Shown one piece after another: positions 20,673-36,059 of a stretch of 64,000 bases of DNA; positions within the stretch are counted from its first letter, which is position 1; every line of letters begins with the position of its first letter. Made by a program: the position numbers and the translations under genes. The notes beneath the pieces are model-generated. The model saw nothing but the letters and a program-made list of their open reading frames with translations, was not told where the DNA came from and did no database searches. The stretch is from Nitrospiria bacterium (lineage in GTDB: Bacteria > Nitrospirota > Nitrospiria > JACQCE01), in NCBI GenBank assembly GCA_035517195.1, contig DATIZH010000007.1:41884-105883 (forward strand), written 5' to 3'.

Positions 20673-20744
20673 GCGGGTGTAGCTCAGTGGTAGAGTACAA
20701 GCTTCCCAAGCTTGGTGTCGCGGGTTCGAATCCCGCCACCCGCT
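20673..20744 (+). tRNA. tRNA-Gly (anticodon CCC)
   Basis: Cloverleaf folded by hand. Acceptor GCGGGTG/CACCCGC, D arm GCTC-AGTGGTA-GAGT, anticodon stem CAAGC/GCTTG with loop TTCCCAA, T arm GCGGG-TTCGAAT-CCCGC, discriminator T. CCA is not encoded. Confidence 0.9.
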
Positions 20745-25440: not shown

Positions 25441-26271
25441 GTGTACATTGATTACTGGGGGTTGACATCACCTCCCTTTGAAAACGTGCCGGATCCCAAG
25501 TTTTATTTCCCTTCAAGCCAGCATGAGGAGGGACTGCACCGGTTGCTGTACGCCGTGACGCAACGCAAGGGCGCCGCCATGCTCACGGGGGAAGTGGGAT
25601 GCGGCAAGACGCTCTTGTCCCGTGAATTTCTAAATAATCTTCATAGCGACCGGTTCAATGTGGCCATGATCACCAATCCATCGTTTCCGGCCCAACAGTT
25701 TTTTCATGAGGTGCTCTACCAGTTCGGGATCGGGACGACCGGCAACCGGAAGGTCTCGATGCTCCATCGCTTTAACGAACATCTGCTGCAGAACGACGAA
25801 CGGAAGATCCAGAGCGTGCTGGTGGTCGACGAGGCGCAGGCCATCGTCGACGACCAGGTGCTGGAAGAGCTTCGACTGCTGTTGAATTTTCAACGGAATG
25901 ACCGGTTTTTGCTGACCCTCGTCCTACTGGGCCAGCCTGAACTTCGCGAGAAGCTGTGGGCCCTCCCGCAATTCGCTCAACGGATTGGCATCCAGTATCA
26001 CCTGATGCCATTGGAAGAAACCGAGGTGGACCGGTACGTCACCTCCAGGCTGCGCGCCGCCGGCAGGGCCGATGAGTTGTTCGACCAGGAGGCCACTCAG
26101 GCGATCGCGAAGTGCAGCAGGGGGATTCCACGAGTGATCAACAACTTGTGCGATCTTTGCTTACTGTCCGGACGCCTGGCGAAGGCCAACCGGATCGATG
26201 CAGATCTTGTCCACATGGTAGCCAGGAACGGGTATTTCGCCGGGTACTTTACCACGGTGGCTCATGGCTGA
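25441..26271 (+). CDS. ExeA/GspA/MshM-like AAA+ ATPase (paralog 2)
   Basis: YWGLTSPPFENVPDPKFYF, Walker A GEVGCGKTL, Walker B VLVVDEAQ, GIPRVINNLCDLCLL. GTG start with GGAGAGG upstream. Confidence 0.8.
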   Translation: MYIDYWGLTSPPFENVPDPKFYFPSSQHEEGLHRLLYAVTQRKGAAMLTGEVGCGKTLLSREFLNNLHSDRFNVAMITNPSFPAQQFFHEVLYQFGIGTTGNRKVSMLHRFNEHLLQNDERKIQSVLVVDEAQAIVDDQVLEELRLLLNFQRNDRFLLTLVLLGQPELREKLWALPQFAQRIGIQYHLMPLEETEVDRYVTSRLRAAGRADELFDQEATQAIAKCSRGIPRVINNLCDLCLLSGRLAKANRIDADLVHMVARNGYFAGYFTTVAHG

Positions 26272-27376
26272 ACCGATCAAAAAAGAGAAACCGATCGTCC
26301 GCTATAGCGACTTGGCCCGATCATCTGAAAACGGGCTGCGAAACATCGGGTCGGACACGCCGGTGCGCGATACGGATGAGATCATGTTCCGGGACGCGAT
26401 CCAGTTGAGAGCCATGGGCCGGTCCCAGTCGCCTCAGCCCGTCGCCTCCAGCGGGGCGGGTGATCATCACGTGGCCAGGCTGTTTGAGCAGATCCTCCAT
26501 GAGGTGACAGGGATTTATACAGCCGCGCGGGGCGGTCTGCCGTTCCGTCTCGAACGGGTGTTTGGTCTGGCACAAGCCATCGCCGATCATGCGACGCCCG
26601 ATCGGTTGCTGTCCCAGCTGTTTGAAGCGCACCCGCAATTCCACTACACCGATCTGAATTCGGCGCACTGCGCAATTATTGCGGTTCAGATCGCCCGCGG
26701 ATTGGGCCATCAACGCGATGAACAGGTCCAGTTAGCCGTCGCGTCCTTGGTTCACGATATCGGCATGCAGACGCTGCCGCAGGGATTGCTCAATACGCCT
26801 GGTCCATTGTCCAAAGACCAGGTTGCCGCCGTACGGACCCATCCTGAATCGGGGGCTCGGTTGTTGAAACAAGCCGCCCCGCAGCACCCCTGGCTGGCCG
26901 CCATCGTCAGAGAGGAACACGAACGGGAGCAAGGGCAAGGTTATCCCAATGGGCTCCGGTCGGAAGAAATTCATGCACTGGCCAAGATTCTTGGCCTGGC
27001 GGATATTTACGACGCCTTGATCTGCCCGCGTCCATATCGACGCATGTTCAGCCCGCATGAGGCGGTCCAGGAGTTGCTGGATTGTCAGGACCGCCTGGGG
27101 TATCCGAAACTGGTCGTCCGGGAACTCATCCAGCAGCTGTCGCTCTTTCCGGCCGGGTGTCGCGTCAGGCTCAGTTCGAATGAGGTCGGGCGCGTGATCC
27201 TCATGAATAAGCAGTCTCCCCTTAGGCCGGTAGTGGAGGTGTTGTTCGATGCGGAAGGACAGCCGCTGCAGACCCCCAGGCACGTGGATCTGAACACGAA
27301 TCCGCTGGTCTATGTCACGGCATCGCTGCCGTTAGAGCATGCCTGCGTGACGGCGCCATCGGAGAACGGCAATTGA
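26264..27376 (+). CDS. HD-GYP domain protein (putative c-di-GMP phosphodiesterase) with an uncharacterised N-terminal region
   Basis: LVHDIGM, THPESGARLL, EEHEREQGQGYPNGL, ADIYDALICPRPYR. 8-nt overlap with ExeA paralog 2. Confidence 0.75.
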   Translation: MAEPIKKEKPIVRYSDLARSSENGLRNIGSDTPVRDTDEIMFRDAIQLRAMGRSQSPQPVASSGAGDHHVARLFEQILHEVTGIYTAARGGLPFRLERVFGLAQAIADHATPDRLLSQLFEAHPQFHYTDLNSAHCAIIAVQIARGLGHQRDEQVQLAVASLVHDIGMQTLPQGLLNTPGPLSKDQVAAVRTHPESGARLLKQAAPQHPWLAAIVREEHEREQGQGYPNGLRSEEIHALAKILGLADIYDALICPRPYRRMFSPHEAVQELLDCQDRLGYPKLVVRELIQQLSLFPAGCRVRLSSNEVGRVILMNKQSPLRPVVEVLFDAEGQPLQTPRHVDLNTNPLVYVTASLPLEHACVTAPSENGN

Positions 27377-27399: not shown

Positions 27400-28566
27400 T
27401 CATCTCGTCCTGTCTCCACCTGCGCCGGAATGTATGAGCCGCCCCGTCAATTGGACGGCCCGCCATGACAGGCGGCCCAACCGGTCGAGATAACTCCAAG
27501 TGATGCCGAGCGGCGAGACGGAACGACCCTCCTGCCGGAGAGCGTCTCTCTTCGGGAAGATGACCTGCCGAACAAAACGTCGCCGCAATGCAGCAGGCCG
27601 AACGGACATCAGATAGAACAGATCCCCCATGCCATTGATGCGGTGATCGGCCATTAATCGGGCGTATAGCCGGCGCTCCAGCCAGGTCAAAGACGGTGCG
27701 GGCAGTTGGACAGTAAGCAAGGAGGGGAGTAGCAAGACTGTTCTGAGATAGGCGCAGACGAAATAGAGCGGTCGGTCGAGTCCGAGCTGCTCGGCCCTCT
27801 CCCTGATTACATCAAACGCTGTCACCTTGAGGAGTCGGTTCAGCAGCCGTCCGATATCGATAAACCAGATCAGACGGTCGAACGAATGCTTCTGAAGATG
27901 GGCGCTGAGGATCACGATCTGGTCGATCGGCGCCAACGACCAGCTCACGGCCGAGCCAAACGGTCGTCGAACGGCGCCGGTCCAGAGCATCGTCTCGTCG
28001 ATGCGGAGAGGATTGGCCGCCGGTTCGACGCGGGAGAGCGAGGCCAGCTGCCGGTGCAGATCGATGCAGATCCCGTCTCTCACATACACGGGGGGAAAGC
28101 GGGACACGGCCGTGTAACCCAGGTCGAATAACAGCCGTTCTGTCTGCTTAAAATGATCGGGACGAACCAGCAGATCGATGTCGCTTAACGGGCGGATTCC
28201 GGGTGGATACAGCTCATCAGTAATGGCCATGCCCTGCATGATCAGGAGATCAAGTTTCTTTTCGGCGGAATGGAGCAGCACCTCTTCCAACATCGCGCAT
28301 TTGATGTGATGATCAAGCAGCCGATGTGTTTTGATCCTGTCCATCCGCCGTCGTATGTCCGCCGGCGGAGGGGGGAAAGGGGGGCTCTCTCTGCACACCT
28401 CGTCATGGAGTAGGCCATCTATGCCCTCCCCACCGGCTTCGATGAGCAGAACCGACCATTCTGAAGGGGTCGAGGGCACCCAGCGTTGGGCCTGCGGCAC
28501 TATCGCATCGCACGCGATACGAGCCAACGTGACCTTCTGCCGTTGGACAGCTGTCTGCATAGGCAT
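27400..28566 (-). CDS. Uncharacterised nucleotidyltransferase family protein (PF14907/NTP_transf_5-like)
   Basis: LDLLIMQGMAITDELYPPGIRPLSDIDLLVRPDHFKQTERLLFDLGY is the family hallmark as I recall it. Start placed at MPMQTAV; ORF-track start 28689 would overlap the divergent gene. Confidence 0.65.
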   Translation of the reverse strand: MPMQTAVQRQKVTLARIACDAIVPQAQRWVPSTPSEWSVLLIEAGGEGIDGLLHDEVCRESPPFPPPPADIRRRMDRIKTHRLLDHHIKCAMLEEVLLHSAEKKLDLLIMQGMAITDELYPPGIRPLSDIDLLVRPDHFKQTERLLFDLGYTAVSRFPPVYVRDGICIDLHRQLASLSRVEPAANPLRIDETMLWTGAVRRPFGSAVSWSLAPIDQIVILSAHLQKHSFDRLIWFIDIGRLLNRLLKVTAFDVIRERAEQLGLDRPLYFVCAYLRTVLLLPSLLTVQLPAPSLTWLERRLYARLMADHRINGMGDLFYLMSVRPAALRRRFVRQVIFPKRDALRQEGRSVSPLGITWSYLDRLGRLSWRAVQLTGRLIHSGAGGDRTR

Positions 28567-28626
28567 GGAGATGTGTTCTAGGATACTCGGCCTCCGGGTG
28601 GATGTCCAGTCGGTGAAACGAGTGTC

Positions 28627-28655
28627 TTGACAACCGGGGGCATGAGGGCTAATAG
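28627..28655 (+). promoter_or_regulatory. Putative promoter of the peptidase/PqqD operon, possibly leaderless
   Basis: TTGACA (28627-28632), 17-nt spacer, TAATAG (28650-28655). ATG 28663 sits about where the transcription start is expected. The ORF-track TTG start is the -35 box itself. Confidence 0.4.
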
Positions 28656-28662
28656 TGAAACC

Positions 28663-29112
28663 ATGGCGCGACCCCATCCCCTGTTTCATGTCGATTTCAC
28701 TCGTGAAGTGCTGACCCGTGAAGGCGAACTCTGGTTTCGAATTGAAGGGCGCAGCATGCGGCCGTTCTTGAGAACTGGCGACCGAGTGTTAATTCGCTCG
28801 TGTTCGATTGATTCGCTGACCTGCGGAGACCTGGTGCTCCTGAATGTCGGTGACTCTCTCTGTCTGCATCGGGTCCTGATGAACGCGGATCGTGACGGTC
28901 CACGCCGACTGAGATCGAAAGGGGATGCCTGCGGCCGATGGGATCTTCCGGTAACTGGCGAGTCGATCGTTGGCAAAGGAGTCGCCGTGAATCGCGGGAC
29001 ACTGACGATGTCCCTGGACAACTGGGCCGGTCGTCTCCTGGGATATCTGTCCGTGTGCGTCTCACTCGTGACAGGATGGGGGTTGTGGTTGAAATGGCGC
29101 CTTCAGGCGTGA
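28663..29112 (+). CDS. S26-family signal-peptidase-like serine peptidase (SipW/ER type)
   Basis: GRSMRPFLRTGDRVLI (Ser nucleophile box), LHRVL (His box) and RSKGDACGRWD (compare TKGDANxxxD), then IVGKGV. C-terminal hydrophobic segment LLGYLSVCVSLVTGWGLWL. No N-terminal TM. ATG 28642 is an alternative start. Confidence 0.65.
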   Translation: MARPHPLFHVDFTREVLTREGELWFRIEGRSMRPFLRTGDRVLIRSCSIDSLTCGDLVLLNVGDSLCLHRVLMNADRDGPRRLRSKGDACGRWDLPVTGESIVGKGVAVNRGTLTMSLDNWAGRLLGYLSVCVSLVTGWGLWLKWRLQA

Positions 29113-29123
29113 CCAGAGTTCCC

Positions 29124-29375
29124 ATGAAGGCGTCCCACACCGCCTCGCAGATGATCAACGGTGAGGCGGTCGTGCTTGATATTCCTGGTAAAATACTTCG
29201 AGGTCTTAATCCCGTGGGCAGCCGCATTTGGGAATTGGTCGACGGCCAACGTACGCTTCTGGACATTGCGCGATTGGTGGCTGAGGAATATACCAGATCT
29301 GAAATCGAAGTGCTTCAGGATGTCGAGTCATTTCTTGATGAGCTTGCCGTACGAGGTGTCATCGAATTCAGATAG
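29124..29375 (+). CDS. PqqD-family protein (RiPP recognition element-like)
   Basis: INGEAVVLDIPGKILRGLNPVGSRIWELVDGQRTLLDIARLVAEEY...VLQDVESFLDELAVRGVI is a typical PqqD pattern. GTG 29109 (GTGA overlap with the peptidase stop) is an alternative start. Confidence 0.75.
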   Translation: MKASHTASQMINGEAVVLDIPGKILRGLNPVGSRIWELVDGQRTLLDIARLVAEEYTRSEIEVLQDVESFLDELAVRGVIEFR

Positions 29376-29442: not shown

Positions 29443-29470
29443 TTGACAGACGGAGGAGGTACGCTATAGT
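29443..29470 (+). promoter_or_regulatory. Strong sigma70-type promoter upstream of the riboswitch-like leader
   Basis: TTGACA (29443-29448), 16-nt spacer, TATAGT (29465-29470). Confidence 0.5.
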
Positions 29471-29513
29471 TATAACAGGACAGTGAGAAGCAACGACGGA
29501 CACCGTTAACGCC

Positions 29514-29600
29514 GACACCGATAAGAGCAAACCCCGAGTGATCGGGGGGCGCAAAGCCGCTCACCCCGCCGATGGAGGGCAGGGCAGGAGGGTTGCCGAA
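29514..29600 (+). promoter_or_regulatory. Candidate c-di-GMP-I (GEMM-I) riboswitch aptamer
   Basis: 29525-29558 reads GAGCAAA-CCCCGA-GUGA-UCGGGG-GGCGCAAAGCC. It is segment-for-segment colinear with the remembered Vc2 core GGGCAAA-CCAUUC-GAAA-GAGUGG-GACGCAAAGCC, including a GNRA tetraloop. A second C-rich/G-rich hairpin (29557-29592) follows. It lies between a promoter and a large secreted-protein gene. Confidence 0.55.
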
Positions 29601-29642
29601 GTGAACGGAAGGTACAGGAAAGCTCATTTTCACTTGCCGAAA

Positions 29643-32600
29643 ATGGGCTTATTATTTGCGTGCAGAACGCTGCATCACCGCGCGCTCACTGGCATTTTCA
29701 CTTTAATATTCTGCTGGGTGGCATTTCCCGCGCACGAGGCGAAGGCCGCGGTCGCCTACAGGGCCTCCGGGACGTTCACCGCCAGAACAGGCTCGATCTC
29801 ACCGCCTTATCCCGCGAGCATGCAGGCCAATGATGTCTGCCTGCTTGTTGTCGAGTCAGAGAATCAGGCCATCTCGCTCTCCTCGGCGCAGGGATTTGCC
29901 GAACTCCCCTGGTCGCCCCAGAGCGCTGGGACATCCGGCGTGAACCCGGCGACTCGACTGGCAGTATTCTGGAAACGGACGGTCGGCGGCGACACGGCCC
30001 CGTCCGTCGCCGACACCGGCGACCATACGACGGGCCAGATCCACTGTTTCTCCGGCGTGATCACCTCCGGCAATCCATGGGACGTCGGCACGGGCGGGAA
30101 CGACGGCGGCGCCAATGACACAAGTGGTTCGATCCCAGGCGCCACCACGACGGTCGATTCAACACTGGTCGTCCTAGTGATCTCCACGAGTTATAACGGG
30201 AGCAGTAACACCCAATGCTCGAACTGGACCAACGCGAGCCTGACCAATTTAACGGAGAGAGCGGACAATACTTCCACAGTAGGATTTGGTGGCGGCCATT
30301 GCATGGCCACGGGCGACATGACCACTGCGGGCACCTACGCCACGACCACCGTAACGCTGGCGAATACGACCTACAAAGGGGCGATTTCGCTTGCGCTTAA
30401 ACCATCTGCCCCCCCGGTGGCCAATCCGACCGAGATTCATTACAGATGGCGGGATGACGACGGTCCCGAAGCCGGCGTCCTGAACCTCGCCCTGATCTGC
30501 GCCACGGCGACCTGCACCGATGTCAATATTGATGTCCCCTTGAAGAATCATCTTATTGCCCTGGGGCACACCGTGACCACCTATATCGACACCAATCATA
30601 CATGGACACCCACCAATTACGACGTGATCGTCATCTCTGAGTCGGTGTTGTCGGCCAACACCGCATGGTTGAAACCCTACGCGGTCCCCATCTTGACGGT
30701 CGAGGGGCAAAATTGGGATGAACTCAGTATGGGGACGAGCGGCGACAGTAACCTCGGCGGCAGCCTAGACATCGATATCGTCAATAATACTCACTTCATC
30801 ACCTCCGTCTATCCGCTCGGAACGTTGACCATCAACACCGCCGGCACGAACACCAGCAATGATCTGGGCTATATGGCCGGCTGGGCCAATGGCGTGACGG
30901 ACTTGGCGACTTACACCTCCAACAGCAGTTGGGCCAGACTGCTGGTGGTGGACAAAGGTGGCGCCCTGGTGACAAGCGGAACTGCGGCTGAACGCCGTGT
31001 GTTCTTCGGCGCCCGTTATTTCGGCGAACTGACCAGCGATGGCATCAGGATTTTCGACCGGGCTCTGGCTTGGGTCTCCTATCTTGGCGCCGGCGCCACA
31101 TTCCTGGCCAACGAGGATACGCCGGTGACCGGTTATCCCAAACTCACGACCATTCGAAACAGAATCGAAATCGCCAATCAGGGCGGAACCACCACCGGCG
31201 CCATGACCTACCGGCTGGAATATGCTCTGTCGACGTCCGGTCCGTGGACTTCCGTGCCCGCCGCCGCCACATCAGAAGACTGGGAAATGGTCGACTCCAC
31301 ATTCATCACCGACGGGCAGTCGACACAAAACATTATCCCTGGATTGACCGATGTTGGATCGCCGTTCGTTTCGGGCCAGTTGAAGGATACAGGGTCGACA
31401 ACCGGTGCGATTGCGCTGGGAGGCAGTCAGTTTACGGAGCTCGAATATTCCATCCATGCCACCAGCAACGCGACGAATTGCCAGACCTATTATTTCCGCG
31501 TGACCAACGCCGGTTCAACAACCAATTTCACCTACACCGTCTACCCTCAGATCACGCTGGCCGGTTCACCGACCTGCACCGCACCCACGCCGGTCGACAA
31601 TCTGACGATCACGGCCAACAACTCTCAGAACACGATCACATGGGACAATCCCGCCTCGAATTACACGCAAGTTCTTGTGCTGGCGAAGACCTCGGACTGC
31701 GCCTTCAGCAGCGATCCCGTCGGCACCGAGCCGATCAACACGACGGTCGGGACCGGGACGGTGATATTCAATGACAATCCGGCGGTCGACCTGTCTTCAA
31801 CATCGGTGACGGTGGGAGGACCGACCACGGTCAGCTACACGGCGGCCACCCAGCGATTGGTTCATAGCGGCCTGACCGATGGTGTGGTGTACTGCTACAA
31901 AATCTACATGAGAAACGGCGATTTGATCGATGACGATAGCGGCGCCGGCCGTCCTTCGGTCACCGCCACGGGCACCGACGGGGTTTCGCCCAGTGCGGTG
32001 TGGAGCTTCAATCAGATCGCCTCGACCGGGGCTACACTCGTCCAACCTAGCGTCGATCCCGGGGCGTCGATCTACACATCATATGGCAACGGCACGTTGG
32101 TCGCCATGGATGCGACGGACGGCTTGCTCTCTTGGCGCGTCACACCGGCGTCAGGCGCGATCCAGGATCAATCCGCGGTTGTGCCGATGTCGGGTTCTAG
32201 CACCTGCGGGGTCGCCGGGGCCACCACCTGTCTGTTCGCCGCCGCCCAGGACGGTTTCGTGTATGCGCGAAACGTAACGGACGGGGGCGGGACGTGGAAT
32301 TATCAAAACGGGTCGAGTGATATGCTCCAGGGCGCGCCGGCTGTGCAGGTTAAAGCCTACAGCAACGGCGGGTTTACCTCGACGACCGATCTCGTCTTTG
32401 CGGCCACACGGGACGCCACGACCATGGCCAACAAAGTGTTTGCCCTGAATCCGACCGTCTCCCCGCCGACAGTGGTATGGCTCTACACGGGCGGCAGCGT
32501 CAACCCATCGTTGGACATGATCACCTCTGCGCCGGTCGTCGACTACAGCAACAACCGACTCTATGTGACAAGTAACTCGAACGGAGGCACCCAGCGAAGC

Positions 32601-33227
32601 CTGTGGGTGTTTAACACCCTCAATGGAACATTACTCAGCACCGGATCGACCTACGGAGGAACGACCCTCGGGGATATCCAGGTGCCGCCCGCCTTGAGCA
32701 TTGACGGAAGCGTGGTTTATGTCGGAACGACGGCCGGAAACATCAGAGCCTACAACACCAGTACCGGTGCGCTGCTCTGGAGCTTCCCGGCCGGCAGCGC
32801 GGTTGTGTCTGGGCTGTGGGTCGAGTTCCGTTCGGGCCTGTCGGGGAATATCTTTTTCGCCACGGCCAACGGGAAGATCTGGAGGATAAAAGATAACGGA
32901 TCCTCCGCCACCGATTTGTGGGGGGCCGGCGCCCCGATGATCACCGCCGCATCATTCCCAGTTGTGATTCCTTCCTCCGGAAAGGTCTACGCTGCAGGCT
33001 GCTCGGGCGCGAGTTGTTCCAGCGGCAGTCTAGCCAAGCTCTACCAACTCGCCGTGTCGACCGGGACGAAAGAGCAGTGCCGCATTCTGGGGACCGACGT
33101 CACGCCGGGAGATCCGGCGTTCGATACCGTGCTTGAACAATTGATTGTTGGGGCCACCGATGGCAAATTGCACGCTTACGCCGCGCCTGGCGGCATCCTG
33201 GGGGGAGATCCGTCATGCACGCCATGA
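29643..33227 (+). CDS. 1,194-aa secreted multidomain protein with a C-terminal PQQ-like/BamB-like beta-propeller
   Basis: Signal peptide MGLLFACRTLHHRALTGIFTLIFCWVAFPAHEAKA. About 8 propeller-blade motifs (LVAMDATDGLLSWRV, FVYARNVTDGGGTWNY, IRAYNTSTGALLWSF, IWRIKDNGSSATDLW, and others). Start moved from ORF-track 29538, which lies inside the riboswitch-like element. TTG 29634 is an alternative start. Confidence 0.7.
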   Translation: MGLLFACRTLHHRALTGIFTLIFCWVAFPAHEAKAAVAYRASGTFTARTGSISPPYPASMQANDVCLLVVESENQAISLSSAQGFAELPWSPQSAGTSGVNPATRLAVFWKRTVGGDTAPSVADTGDHTTGQIHCFSGVITSGNPWDVGTGGNDGGANDTSGSIPGATTTVDSTLVVLVISTSYNGSSNTQCSNWTNASLTNLTERADNTSTVGFGGGHCMATGDMTTAGTYATTTVTLANTTYKGAISLALKPSAPPVANPTEIHYRWRDDDGPEAGVLNLALICATATCTDVNIDVPLKNHLIALGHTVTTYIDTNHTWTPTNYDVIVISESVLSANTAWLKPYAVPILTVEGQNWDELSMGTSGDSNLGGSLDIDIVNNTHFITSVYPLGTLTINTAGTNTSNDLGYMAGWANGVTDLATYTSNSSWARLLVVDKGGALVTSGTAAERRVFFGARYFGELTSDGIRIFDRALAWVSYLGAGATFLANEDTPVTGYPKLTTIRNRIEIANQGGTTTGAMTYRLEYALSTSGPWTSVPAAATSEDWEMVDSTFITDGQSTQNIIPGLTDVGSPFVSGQLKDTGSTTGAIALGGSQFTELEYSIHATSNATNCQTYYFRVTNAGSTTNFTYTVYPQITLAGSPTCTAPTPVDNLTITANNSQNTITWDNPASNYTQVLVLAKTSDCAFSSDPVGTEPINTTVGTGTVIFNDNPAVDLSSTSVTVGGPTTVSYTAATQRLVHSGLTDGVVYCYKIYMRNGDLIDDDSGAGRPSVTATGTDGVSPSAVWSFNQIASTGATLVQPSVDPGASIYTSYGNGTLVAMDATDGLLSWRVTPASGAIQDQSAVVPMSGSSTCGVAGATTCLFAAAQDGFVYARNVTDGGGTWNYQNGSSDMLQGAPAVQVKAYSNGGFTSTTDLVFAATRDATTMANKVFALNPTVSPPTVVWLYTGGSVNPSLDMITSAPVVDYSNNRLYVTSNSNGGTQRSLWVFNTLNGTLLSTGSTYGGTTLGDIQVPPALSIDGSVVYVGTTAGNIRAYNTSTGALLWSFPAGSAVVSGLWVEFRSGLSGNIFFATANGKIWRIKDNGSSATDLWGAGAPMITAASFPVVIPSSGKVYAAGCSGASCSSGSLAKLYQLAVSTGTKEQCRILGTDVTPGDPAFDTVLEQLIVGATDGKLHAYAAPGGILGGDPSCTP

Positions 33228-33886: not shown

Positions 33887-33921
33887 GGTAAAAACCGCCA
33901 TGTTCGAGGAGGATGACGAGG

Positions 33922-34086
33922 ATGGATGAACAATCGAACGTCGAACGTCGATCGCTCCCCCCTGAACCCTATCGAAAACCGAAGATCGAATGGGAGGAAC
34001 CATTTGAACCCGTGACGTCGGCCATCAGCTGCGCCAAGCATCCCGGCCAGGGTGTTCCCAGTTGCACAGCGGCGCCGAAAGTCTAA
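33922..34086 (+). CDS. Unannotated 54-aa ORF, candidate RiPP precursor peptide
   Basis: Hand translation: MDEQSNVERRSLPPEPYRKPKIEWEEPFEPVTSAISCAKHPGQGVPSCTAAPKV. GAGGAGG (33906-33912) lies 9 nt before the ATG. The stop is 7 nt before the kinase ATG. Below the 60-aa cut-off of the ORF track. Confidence 0.5.
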   Translation: MDEQSNVERRSLPPEPYRKPKIEWEEPFEPVTSAISCAKHPGQGVPSCTAAPKV

Positions 34087-34093
34087 GATCGAG

Positions 34094-34897
34094 ATGACCG
34101 CTTCTTCAGTGACGCTTGAAATGGGAGGATTCACGTGCGCCATCCTCTCGGGGGATCAGGCGATCACCGAACCACTTACCCGTCGATATCAGGGGTTTTT
34201 TTCGACCGACCCTCCCGACTTCACGCTTACAACCATGATCATGGATGGCGCTGCCCGGCAAGATGGGGTGTTGGAGATTCAATCAGGGGCGGTCGCCGTC
34301 GGGCGATCCGCGCGGCGATTGACGCTGACCGGGAGTGGTTTCTGGGCCGAATGTGATCTGGACCTCAGGACGGGGACCATCGTTCAACCATTGAATTTAA
34401 GTCCTTTAGATGTACTACTCAAGGCGATCTATTCACACTACTTGTCATATGAAGACGCCTGCTTTGTCCATGGCTGTGCCATACAGCGCCAGGGCAGAGG
34501 CTTCCTGTTCTTTGGCCCCAGCGGCAGCGGCAAATCGACAATGGCCAAGATAGCAGGCGAAGGAGTGCTGGCGGACGAATTGGTGATTCTGCGCCGGCGT
34601 GAACGCAGTTATGAGCTTCATGGGACGCCGTTTTGGGGCGGCAGCAATTCGACGGCGCCCCTGACGGGGCTGTTCGCGCTCAGTCTTGACCGTCGCGCGG
34701 AGACCGACACCCTCTTGACGCCGGCCCAGACGGTGCGTCGACTGCTCCCCTGCATGGGTAATTTTATCGAAGATGCGGCGTGCCAGGCGCGGCTGCTGGC
34801 TCTTGCCAGCTCAGTAGCGCAAACCATGCCGTGCCGGCAAGTGCAATTCTCGACCACCGCATCGATGGAGTCCTGGGCCCATGCTCATTTCGTTTGA
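34094..34897 (+). CDS. HPr kinase-related P-loop protein (HprK-like serine kinase)
   Basis: VHGCAIQRQGRGFLFFGPSGSGKSTMAKIAGEGVLADELVIL parallels the HprK C-terminal domain (P-loop plus LVADD-like). Start moved from GTG 34052 to ATG 34094. Confidence 0.65.
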   Translation: MTASSVTLEMGGFTCAILSGDQAITEPLTRRYQGFFSTDPPDFTLTTMIMDGAARQDGVLEIQSGAVAVGRSARRLTLTGSGFWAECDLDLRTGTIVQPLNLSPLDVLLKAIYSHYLSYEDACFVHGCAIQRQGRGFLFFGPSGSGKSTMAKIAGEGVLADELVILRRRERSYELHGTPFWGGSNSTAPLTGLFALSLDRRAETDTLLTPAQTVRRLLPCMGNFIEDAACQARLLALASSVAQTMPCRQVQFSTTASMESWAHAHFV

Positions 34898-36059
34898 TTC
34901 AGACCACCATCGATTGGAGCCATCGAATACTGCCACACGTTATGGGCGAATCGTCAGGCAGGCGGCCAGTGCGCATATTCCGATGAATGTGCTGGTGGAA
35001 CTCACGCACCGCTGCCATCTCGATTGCGTTCACTGTTATCTCGAAGACAATCATGCGCATGACGCAAGGCCTCGAGAGCTCACCACCGAAGAGCTCTATC
35101 ACCTGATTGATGATCTGGTGGCCGCCGGCTGTCTGTTTCTGACCCTCAGCGGCGGGGAGATTTTTCTTCGATCGGATACGTTGAAAATCGCGCGGTATGC
35201 CAGGAGCCGCGGGATGGCGATCCGGTTCTTCACCGCCGGATTGCTTCTGACCACCGAGTTGATCGACGCCATCGCAGAGCTCCATCCGCTCTCTGTTGAA
35301 TTCTCTCTGTATTCGGCCGACCATCCGGACATTCATGACGCCATCACACGCGTGCCTGGTTCTCACGCCAAAACCCTGTGGTCATTGCGGGAGCTGTCCG
35401 CGCGTCGGATTCCGGTGGTGATCAAGACCCCATTGATGCGATCGGTGTATAAGGAATACCCTGGCATTATTGCGCTGGCCCGATCTCTCGGCGCGGAGTA
35501 TCTGCTTGATCCGACCGTAACCCCAAGAAACGATGGTGATCTCTCCACCTGTGCGTTGCGTGTCACAGCGGACCAGCTGGCCGAACTGTATGCCGATCAG
35601 TCTCTGCCCGTGGCCGAGGAGATCAGAACCCTGGCATCCCGCCGCCGACCCAGGGACCCGGATGATGAGATATGCAATCTTGGCAAGACGGGTTGCGCCA
35701 TTTCCCCGTTTGGTGATGTCTATCCGACGTTGGGTTTTCCCTGGTCGGCCGGCAATATCAGACTCGAATCGTTTCAGACAATCTGGCGGGACTCGCCCGT
35801 CTTGGCGAGACTCCGCAACATGAAAGTCAAGGATTTGGGGGTCTGTTCACACTGCGAGAAGGCATCATACTGCAACCGATGCTGCATGTGGGCGCTGATG
35901 GATGACGGCAATTTGCTTGGTGGATCCACCTGGGCCTGCGACATCGCGGCCGCCAAGGAACGGGCGGCTGGGCTTTCATCGAATCCGACCCCCCACCAGT
36001 TAAATATGAGTCAAAGAACGAACGACGATGTTGTTGTTCCACTTCGCCTGATGTTGTAA
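34881..36059 (+). CDS. Radical SAM enzyme with C-terminal SPASM domain
   Basis: CHLDCVHC (CxxxCxxC) and GGEIFL. SPASM-type Cys cluster CNLGKTGCAISPFGDVYP...CSHCEKASYCNRCCMW. 17-nt overlap with the kinase gene. Confidence 0.85.
   Translation: MLISFDSDHHRLEPSNTATRYGRIVRQAASAHIPMNVLVELTHRCHLDCVHCYLEDNHAHDARPRELTTEELYHLIDDLVAAGCLFLTLSGGEIFLRSDTLKIARYARSRGMAIRFFTAGLLLTTELIDAIAELHPLSVEFSLYSADHPDIHDAITRVPGSHAKTLWSLRELSARRIPVVIKTPLMRSVYKEYPGIIALARSLGAEYLLDPTVTPRNDGDLSTCALRVTADQLAELYADQSLPVAEEIRTLASRRRPRDPDDEICNLGKTGCAISPFGDVYPTLGFPWSAGNIRLESFQTIWRDSPVLARLRNMKVKDLGVCSHCEKASYCNRCCMWALMDDGNLLGGSTWACDIAAAKERAAGLSSNPTPHQLNMSQRTNDDVVVPLRLML

Follow-up and report, generated by a model that had tools for sequence, protein, structure and literature searches.

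An adenine-20 riboswitch of the GEMM-I fold in the leader of a secreted propeller protein gene of a Nitrospiria bacterium

The 64,000-nt stretch of a Nitrospiria genome analysed here (GenBank assembly GCA_035517195.1, contig DATIZH010000007.1, positions 41,884 to 105,883; hereafter the window) encodes a secreted propeller protein of about 1200 residues, and the leader of its gene raises the question of which cyclic dinucleotide it senses and whether the ligand turns the gene on or off. The original prediction, made by reading the sequence, had placed a riboswitch of the c-di-GMP-I (GEMM-I) fold in this leader, with cyclic di-GMP (c-di-GMP) as the ligand, and had proposed a cmsearch run with Rfam RF01051 as a check. 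The covariance-model search gave a match of 55.7 bits at 29516-29600 of the forward strand (gathering score 35, E = 3.5e-8), which exceeds the gathering threshold by 20 bits and covers the whole model (positions 1-87 of 87), and bears out the family call. The core at 29525-29558 reads GAGCAAA-CCCCGA-GTGA-TCGGGG-GGCGCAAAGCC, exactly as predicted, and in the Rfam alignment the second hairpin (about 29555-29594) takes the place of the family's second stem. The sole further Rfam match within the window is a tRNA. The element truly belongs to the GEMM-I family of cyclic-dinucleotide riboswitches, here in a genome of the Nitrospirota. The c-di-GMP-I-GGC variant (RF03167), searched under permissive settings, was rejected: its score of 50.5 bits is below the gathering score of 59, and the sequence reads GCAAAG, which places A at position 47, not the G of GCGAAG.

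Seven full-length orthologues of the 1194-aa downstream protein were found on metagenome contigs, with 71-81% identity, and all seven orthologous loci with upstream DNA carry an RF01051 match at the equivalent place (53.9-59.9 bits). Counts out of eight below refer to the alignment of these seven syntenic leaders with that of the window. Secondary structure was taken from unconstrained RNAalifold folding of the eight leaders together with the Rfam model alignments (Table 1). Two hairpins and a conserved junction (GCAAAC ... GNRA ... GCAAAGCC ... CCGA) are closed by the helix P1, as in the GEMM-I architecture. No convincing P1 had been seen by eye; the helix does exist, between 29512-20 and 29597-608, and was recovered by the unconstrained folding, while 29519-20 pairs with 29597-98 according to the P1 of the RF03167 model. 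Across the eight sequences, 96.9% of the alignment cells in P1 are paired, with one A-U to G-U change, compared to 100% in P2 and in the base of P3. The distal part of P3 varies, one C-G pair being replaced by U-A, and the P2 loop is GUGA, GUAA or GCGA, always of the form GYRA. The proposed register as a whole pairs 94.8% of cells, against 37-55% with the partners slid. In all eight orthologues, the energy of the aptamer fold exceeds the minimum free energy by only 2.2-7.0 kcal/mol. The aptamer (29512-608) lies in the 5′ leader on the gene's own strand, with a promoter upstream (29443-70) and an open reading frame from 29601 or 29643.

The pocket differs at one position from the canonical c-di-GMP contact set G20/A47/C92 (Vc2 numbering). 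At position 11 of the RF01051 model, which is unpaired and stands just before the first G-C pair, the consensus is G and the window has A29526, corresponding to position 20, whereas A47 (29553) and C92 (29596) are retained. This mapping was derived from the Rfam consensus; an alignment to what we take to be the Vc2 and Gs1761 sequences, used only as a lead, agrees with it. It also agrees with the Gs1761 residues named in the literature (G8, A9, A11, A12, A14, C15, G40, A41 and C75; PMC6274999), where A29526 corresponds to A14. Position 20 is A in all eight orthologues, beside a position 19 that varies among A, C and G. In a control scan of metagenomes with the same aptamer core pattern, in which either purine was allowed at position 20, this base was G in 123 of 123 aptamers among the matches listed (120 loci). 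To judge from this comparison, A20 is a fixed, lineage-specific state and not drift within a c-di-GMP aptamer, since it is invariant beside a variable neighbour while the comparable aptamers listed all have G. The original prediction had counted two purine substitutions in the conserved blocks. The differences are real, and one of them, GGCGC for GACGC, is a common natural variant, because this form, which the scan pattern required, occurs in at least 120 metagenome loci; the other, GAGCAAA for GGGCAAA, had been passed over as harmless and is the exchange of the ligand-contact base G20 for A.

What this exchange means for the ligand can be read from characterised aptamers. G20 recognises one guanine (Gα) of c-di-GMP at its Hoogsteen face, whereas riboswitches for cyclic GMP-AMP (cGAMP) have in its place an adenine, the partner of the cGAMP adenine; the ligand guanine is bound by C92 in a Watson-Crick pair (PMC6140456), and A47 intercalates between the two ligand bases in both Vc2 and Gs1761 (PMC6140456, PMC6274999). 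An A at position 20 defines the GEMM-Ib subclass (PMC6140456, PMC6456294), and the present element has its complete sequence signature, the GEMM-I fold with A20, A47 and C92. In the Vc2-G20A mutant, the dissociation constants are 120 nM for cGAMP and 53 nM for c-di-GMP, the latter bound via a protonated adenine, compared to 10 μM and picomolar, respectively, in wild-type Vc2 (PMC6140456). Selectivity varies among natural A20 aptamers: Gs1761 and Gm0970 are highly selective for cGAMP, Cbe 1-2 is bispecific (PMC6140456, PMC8835794). As the A20/A47/C92 pocket is that of GEMM-Ib and Vc2-G20A, cGAMP or dual binding is predicted: the element likely has at least the same affinity for 3′,3′-cGAMP as for c-di-GMP, and its c-di-GMP binding would most likely be far weaker than that of a G20 aptamer. 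A plain c-di-GMP label is therefore not safe, position 20 being in contact with a ligand base and A there marking GEMM-Ib and the bispecific Vc2 mutant. Annotation pipelines and Rfam call such elements c-di-GMP-I, a label that is probably wrong or incomplete for the ligand here, given a specificity base that is the adenine of cGAMP switches and is fixed in the lineage. The class itself is already well known; the fixed change of its specificity position in another phylum is a testable lead.

Compared to the Geobacter GEMM-Ib riboswitches (Gs1761 upstream of pgcA, Gm0970 and pilM), the element shares the three-helix fold, A20, A47 and C92, the 6-nt J1/2 with its contact adenines (AUAAGA has adenines at the Gs1761 ligand-contact positions A9, A11, A12 and A14; contacts from PMC6274999), the GYRA tetraloop on P2, an extracellular or surface target and a terminator hairpin behind the aptamer. 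They differ in the host, Desulfuromonadota versus Nitrospirota, in the pair beside A20, which is C-G in Gs1761 and G-C here, and in the Shine-Dalgarno sequence and GTG codon, which here lie inside the aptamer. The likeness to Vc2 comprises the fold, the core GCAAAC ... GCAAAGCC ... UNCCGA and the pairs G21-C46 and C22-G45 beside position 20. The pocket is identical to that of Vc2-G20A, which binds cGAMP and c-di-GMP about equally (PMC6140456), whereas the wild type, with G20, has a picomolar affinity for c-di-GMP; here A20 is natural and fixed. In addition, the loop of Vc2 is GAAA and its P3 contains a tetraloop receptor, in contrast to the GYRA loop and the different P3 of the present element. 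A natural A20 GEMM-I aptamer outside Geobacter is the bispecific Cbe 1-2 of Clostridium beijerinckii (PMC6140456), a Firmicutes element in a different gene context, likened here by description.

Several observations weigh against cGAMP as the ligand. A20 is necessary and not sufficient for cGAMP selectivity, the defining property of GEMM-Ib, both Vc2-G20A and Cbe 1-2 being bispecific (PMC6140456), and the pair beside A20 has the G-C orientation of Vc2 in place of the C-G of Gs1761 (C15, G40; PMC6274999). The HD-GYP phosphodiesterase gene that had been noted upstream is indeed present at 26264-27376, as evidenced by its motifs and a solved-structure match, and is syntenic in all orthologous loci. 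Its best match among solved structures is the 3′3′-cGAMP phosphodiesterase 3 of V. cholerae (5z7c, E = 6.6e-19), which is only modestly better than that to the c-di-GMP enzyme PmGH, to whose RPYK the RPYR of the window enzyme aligns. In cGAMP-specific HD-GYP proteins (GAP, PmxA type), Rxx(Q/N) replaces Rxx(K/R) (bioRxiv 10.1101/600031); the neighbour, with its canonical RPYR, was thus rejected as a cGAMP-specific enzyme. Neither a GGDEF motif nor a CD-NTase gene was found in the window, nor did the examined flanks of the contig give GGDEF or CD-NTase Pfam matches; window and flanks combined cover about 32.5-114 kb of the 118.8-kb contig (~82 kb).

These points lend themselves to another explanation, an ordinary c-di-GMP riboswitch in an organism without cGAMP, in which A20 is tolerated or was selected only to lower the affinity from picomolar to a nanomolar-to-micromolar range of physiological use. 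It accounts for the solid RF01051 match, the 53 nM c-di-GMP binding that Vc2-G20A keeps via its protonated adenine (PMC6140456), the syntenic HD-GYP neighbour of canonical c-di-GMP type (RxxR) and the absence of a detectable cGAMP synthase from the ~82 kb examined; moreover, the literature consulted yielded no link of Nitrospirota with Hypr GGDEFs or cGAMP riboswitches. It has to contend with the invariance of A20 against a uniform G in the comparable aptamers listed, with a base set A20/A47/C92 that is exactly the one suited to pair with both bases of cGAMP, A and G (PMC6140456), and with the fact that the characterised natural A20 aptamers in the cited literature (Gs1761, Gm0970 and Cbe 1-2) all bind cGAMP. 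We regard this explanation as possible, if doubtful. On the narrower matter of the natural ligand, cGAMP and a c-di-GMP sensor of tuned-down affinity come out roughly even on the sequence evidence. If the ligand is c-di-GMP, the element would represent natural affinity tuning through a protonated adenine. If it is cGAMP, riboswitch-based 3′,3′-cGAMP signalling would reach beyond Geobacter and its relatives into Nitrospirota, and would there be linked with the secreted propeller protein, the radical-SAM peptide cassette and polysaccharide export.

The direction of switching depends on what follows the aptamer. RNAalifold places a separate hairpin (29621-31 with 29639-49) downstream of it, in which a G+C-based stem is directly followed by a U-tract, the pattern of an intrinsic terminator, and which we take as a predicted terminator. 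Hairpin and U-rich tail are conserved in all eight leaders, with stems of 11-12 bp, the consensus AGCCCAUUUUC..GAGAAUGGGCU, T runs of 4-5 in most and energies of -12.1 to -18.6 kcal/mol; 92.7% of the cells are paired, and six pairs are changed on one side and still paired. The hairpin lies clear of the aptamer, 11 nt past P1, so that both can coexist, and both form in the consensus fold, unlike in the typical GEMM-Ib ON platform, where terminator and P1 are mutually exclusive. A different platform had been proposed originally, a pairing of AAGUGAA (29599-29605) with UUCACUU (29629-29635). Both sequences are present, and a conserved platform they are not: TTCACTT occurs in the window only (0 of 7 orthologues) and AAGUGAA is part of the P1 3′ strand, for which reasons this candidate was rejected.

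The start region is interwoven with both structures. The segment AGGAGG-N9-GTG shows no variation among the eight sequences and is in frame and open in each of them; no indels occur over the 42 nt from this GTG to ATG 29643, and those past the U-tract are multiples of three. The equivalent of GTG 29601 is the called start in five of the seven orthologous loci, as it is here (P0010, 1208 aa); the other two are called from the ATG equivalent to 29643 (L006) and from an internal ATG 20 codons later (L010). ATG 29643, which lies within the 3′ arm of the hairpin (29643-45), is present in 7 of 8 orthologues, replaced by ACG in L005, and has no Shine-Dalgarno sequence. About half of the neighbouring genes have GGAGG 7-10 nt before the start, and the GTG start region fits the lineage because of this similar spacing. 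A start called inside an aptamer is either a mistake of annotation or holds the key to how the switch works.

We propose that the operon would be transcribed from its own conserved promoter with the aptamer in its 5′ leader, and that ligand binding would lock P1 and P3 and thereby hide the Shine-Dalgarno sequence and GTG. With neither an entering ribosome nor an alternative pairing, the terminator would then form unopposed, and the ligand would turn the operon down (OFF). The coexistence of aptamer and terminator suggests an OFF-type layout, as in the Cd1 OFF switch of Clostridioides difficile and unlike the pilM ON switch, in which the two are mutually exclusive (PMC9262584). Cd1 likewise has a separate aptamer and a downstream intrinsic terminator, whereas it carries G at the specificity position in place of A and a long platform with a defined antiterminator, of which none was detectable here; a further difference is that the present terminator overlaps the start of the coding region.

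Other results speak against this mechanism. The Shine-Dalgarno sequence is 36-70% unpaired in the free ensemble, and P3, which holds most of it, is stable without ligand; the modelled change in its exposure is modest and does not exceed that seen with shuffled leaders. A leader segment CAAC (29491-94), a candidate anti-sequestor, is complementary to GUUG (29592-95) at the P3 base adjoining C92, with two variants that are wobble-compatible; its pairing probability ranges from 0.01 to 0.88, and the gain in Shine-Dalgarno exposure is within one standard deviation of that of shuffled leaders. A duplex search and nascent-transcript folding of the orthologues found no conserved antiterminator for the 5′ arm of the hairpin, the partner of which differed in nearly every orthologue (P2, the P3 3′ side, linker or leader). 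The signal peptides of homologues, of about 34 residues (L133), fit the ATG start better than GTG. Moreover, genes for matrix components and adhesins are more often induced than repressed by such messengers. Weighing these against the layout, we favour the modelled OFF direction by a narrow lead.

Several of the same data would suit a classical transcriptional ON switch, in which the ligand prevents the terminator at 29620-29650 by an alternative pairing and ATG 29643 is the true start, exposed upon read-through. The Geobacter GEMM-Ib riboswitches are terminator-based ON switches (PMC6456294, PMC9262584), and the conserved hairpin with its U-tract, the ATG of seven of the eight orthologues, a signal peptide of ~35 aa from that ATG that matches those of the homologues L133 and P0029, and a surface or matrix target of the usually induced kind would all be expected. 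However, the terminator overlaps neither P1 nor any other part of the aptamer, in contrast to that of pilM (PMC9262584), and both can form; no partner of its 5′ arm is conserved across the orthologues; and the ATG has no Shine-Dalgarno sequence and is ACG in L005. We regard an ON switch of this kind as less likely. The explanation as a whole, a functional switch of the GEMM-I fold with cGAMP or a dual ligand and ligand-dependent repression, is one that the comparative sequence data render reasonably probable. A more general scheme, in which a GEMM-Ib-type lineage of Nitrospirota, a phylum in which cGAMP signalling is not known to have been described, uses cGAMP to control matrix or surface proteins, with an unusually compact platform that has the Shine-Dalgarno sequence and start codon in the P3 and P1 3′ strands and an intrinsic terminator within the first ~20 codons that reads ribosome loading, would be rather improbable.

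The promoter TTGACA-N16-TATAGT that had been claimed for 29443-29470 stands, with a score of 11/12. Its -35 TTGAC is invariant and its -10 element (TATAGT, TAAAGT or TATATT) conserved in all eight leaders, and transcription would start near 29477; two promoter-like sites occur in the 1-kb region, compared to 0.6 ± 0.7 in shuffles. The aptamer is almost invariant across the eight leaders despite 20-30% divergence of the proteins, and covariation within this set, which counts against the structure if taken alone, is not significant and not informative, because the sequences are too alike. That the match arose by chance, or that the aptamer has decayed and lost its function, as the lack of significant covariation might suggest, is effectively refuted and extremely improbable, given a full-model score 20 bits over the gathering threshold, a near-invariant aptamer ahead of proteins only 71-81% identical, and a conserved, correctly positioned promoter. 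The second promoter-like match, TTTTCA-17-TATTAT (9/12) at 29627-29655 of the forward strand, lies within the terminator hairpin and U-tract and is most likely a by-product of their A+T-rich sequence.

Table 1. Coordinates of the riboswitch, its expression platform and neighbouring genes in the window
Feature	Position	Strand	Details
HD-GYP phosphodiesterase gene	26264-27376	+	HDIG and GYP motifs, RPYR (Rxx[K/R]) signature; syntenic in all orthologous loci
PqqD/ScmD-like protein gene	28938-29375		Upstream of the riboswitch promoter; remaining cassette downstream
Sigma-70-type promoter	29443-29470	+	-35 TTGACA 29443-48, -10 TATAGT 29465-70, 16-nt spacer, score 11/12
5′ leader before aptamer	29477-29511	+	35 nt, partly conserved (..CATTGAAGAGACAACGGACA..), alignment columns 104-138
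P1 5′ strand	29512-29520	+	CCG-A-CAC-CG; 29512-14:29606-08 and 29516-18:29601-03 by RNAalifold
J1/2	29521-29526	+	AUAAGA; A29526 = position 20 (Vc2 numbering), A14 of Gs1761
P2	29527-29552	+	G29527-C29552, C29528-G29551, conserved AAA, 6-bp stem 29532-37:29542-47, GUGA tetraloop 29538-41
J2/3	29553-29554	+	A29553 = A47; Rfam alignment GCAAAGCC; invariant in 8/8
P3	29555-29594	+	Base 29555-62:29588-94 (G29559 bulged), distal stem 29564-70:29578-84, loop GAUGGAG
Candidate ribosome-binding region	29586-29603	+	AGGAGG 29586-91 in P3 3′ strand, N9, GTG 29601-03 in P1 3′ strand
J3/1	29595-29596	+	C29596 = C92; Rfam alignment UGCCGAA; invariant in 8/8
P1 3′ strand	29597-29608	+	CG-AA-GUG-AA-CGG; includes GTG 29601-03
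Regulated gene	29601-33227	+	~1200-aa secreted protein, start GTG 29601 or ATG 29643
Terminator-like hairpin	29620-29657	+	12-bp stem 29620-31:29639-50, loop ACUUGCC, U-rich tail AUUAUUU 29651-57
Candidate precursor peptide gene	33913-34086		57 aa; 54-65 aa in orthologues
ScmC-like (HprK-related) protein gene	34052-34897
Radical SAM/SPASM enzyme gene	34881-36059

The regulated gene encodes the secreted propeller protein much as described originally: its open reading frame extends to 33227, and the product consists of a signal peptide, an N-terminal module (residues 36-254) and a C-terminal PQQ-like β-propeller. It is followed on the same strand, overlapping or closely spaced, by genes for a 203-aa protein, a 57-aa peptide, a ScmC-like protein and a radical SAM/SPASM enzyme, and further downstream by those for polysaccharide export, a chain-length regulator, Wzy, a flippase and glycosyltransferases. 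The orthologous loci share the gene order HD-GYP, NTP_transf_5 (opposite strand), PqqD-like protein, intergenic gap, the large protein, a ~200-aa protein, a ~54-aa peptide, ScmC-like protein and radical SAM/SPASM enzyme. Owing to the shared strand, the overlapping or close spacing and the conserved synteny, we infer that the gene is probably the first of an operon that reaches through the peptide/ScmC-like/radical-SAM cassette to the polysaccharide export genes. A distant homologue of the large protein in the same cassette (L133, 34% identity) has no GEMM-I element upstream, and a scan of GTDB genomes with the protein revealed no close relatives, only a weak match in Rikenellaceae.

The riboswitch thus lies within a cassette that resembles SynChlorMet-type peptide maturation, in which all scores are below the curated cut-offs. 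The N-terminal module of the large protein (window 29748-30404) has no Pfam or NCBIfam match. It shares 60-75% identity with the N-terminal parts of dozens of large surface proteins that are not otherwise related (MshQ/DUF6701-type, LamG, FN3 and Ig-like) from Gammaproteobacteria, Dehalococcoidales, Patescibacteria and one metagenome-assembled genome of Nanoarchaeota. This conservation across phyla is unusually high and suggests a mobile or strongly constrained domain.

An AAA_22 ATPase gene (25441-26271) overlaps the HD-GYP gene by 8 nt, and an NTP_transf_5 nucleotidyltransferase gene (27400-28689) lies in the opposite orientation, syntenic in all orthologous loci. A tRNA-Gly gene (anticodon CCC) at 20673-20744 of the forward strand was identified by both Rfam (72.9 bits) and ARAGORN. 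Exact matches of neighbouring proteins (HUJ78814-21) assign the window to a 118.8-kb contig of a metagenome-assembled Nitrospiria genome. Around the window, at ~32.5-53 and 93-114 kb of contig k141_4467568 (ERZ27256514; L131 and L132), extends a very large region of envelope-polysaccharide genes, which encode many glycosyltransferases and methyltransferases, Kdo transferase/LpxK, heptosyltransferases, dTDP-sugar genes, UDP-glucose dehydrogenase and WbqC/PIG-L/DegT proteins. Among the metagenome loci of the pattern scan, several (L012, L087, L100, L104 and L111) have a pair of G20 GEMM-I aptamers, in tandem or ~0.6-0.8 kb apart, which corresponds to the known tandem arrangement of the class.

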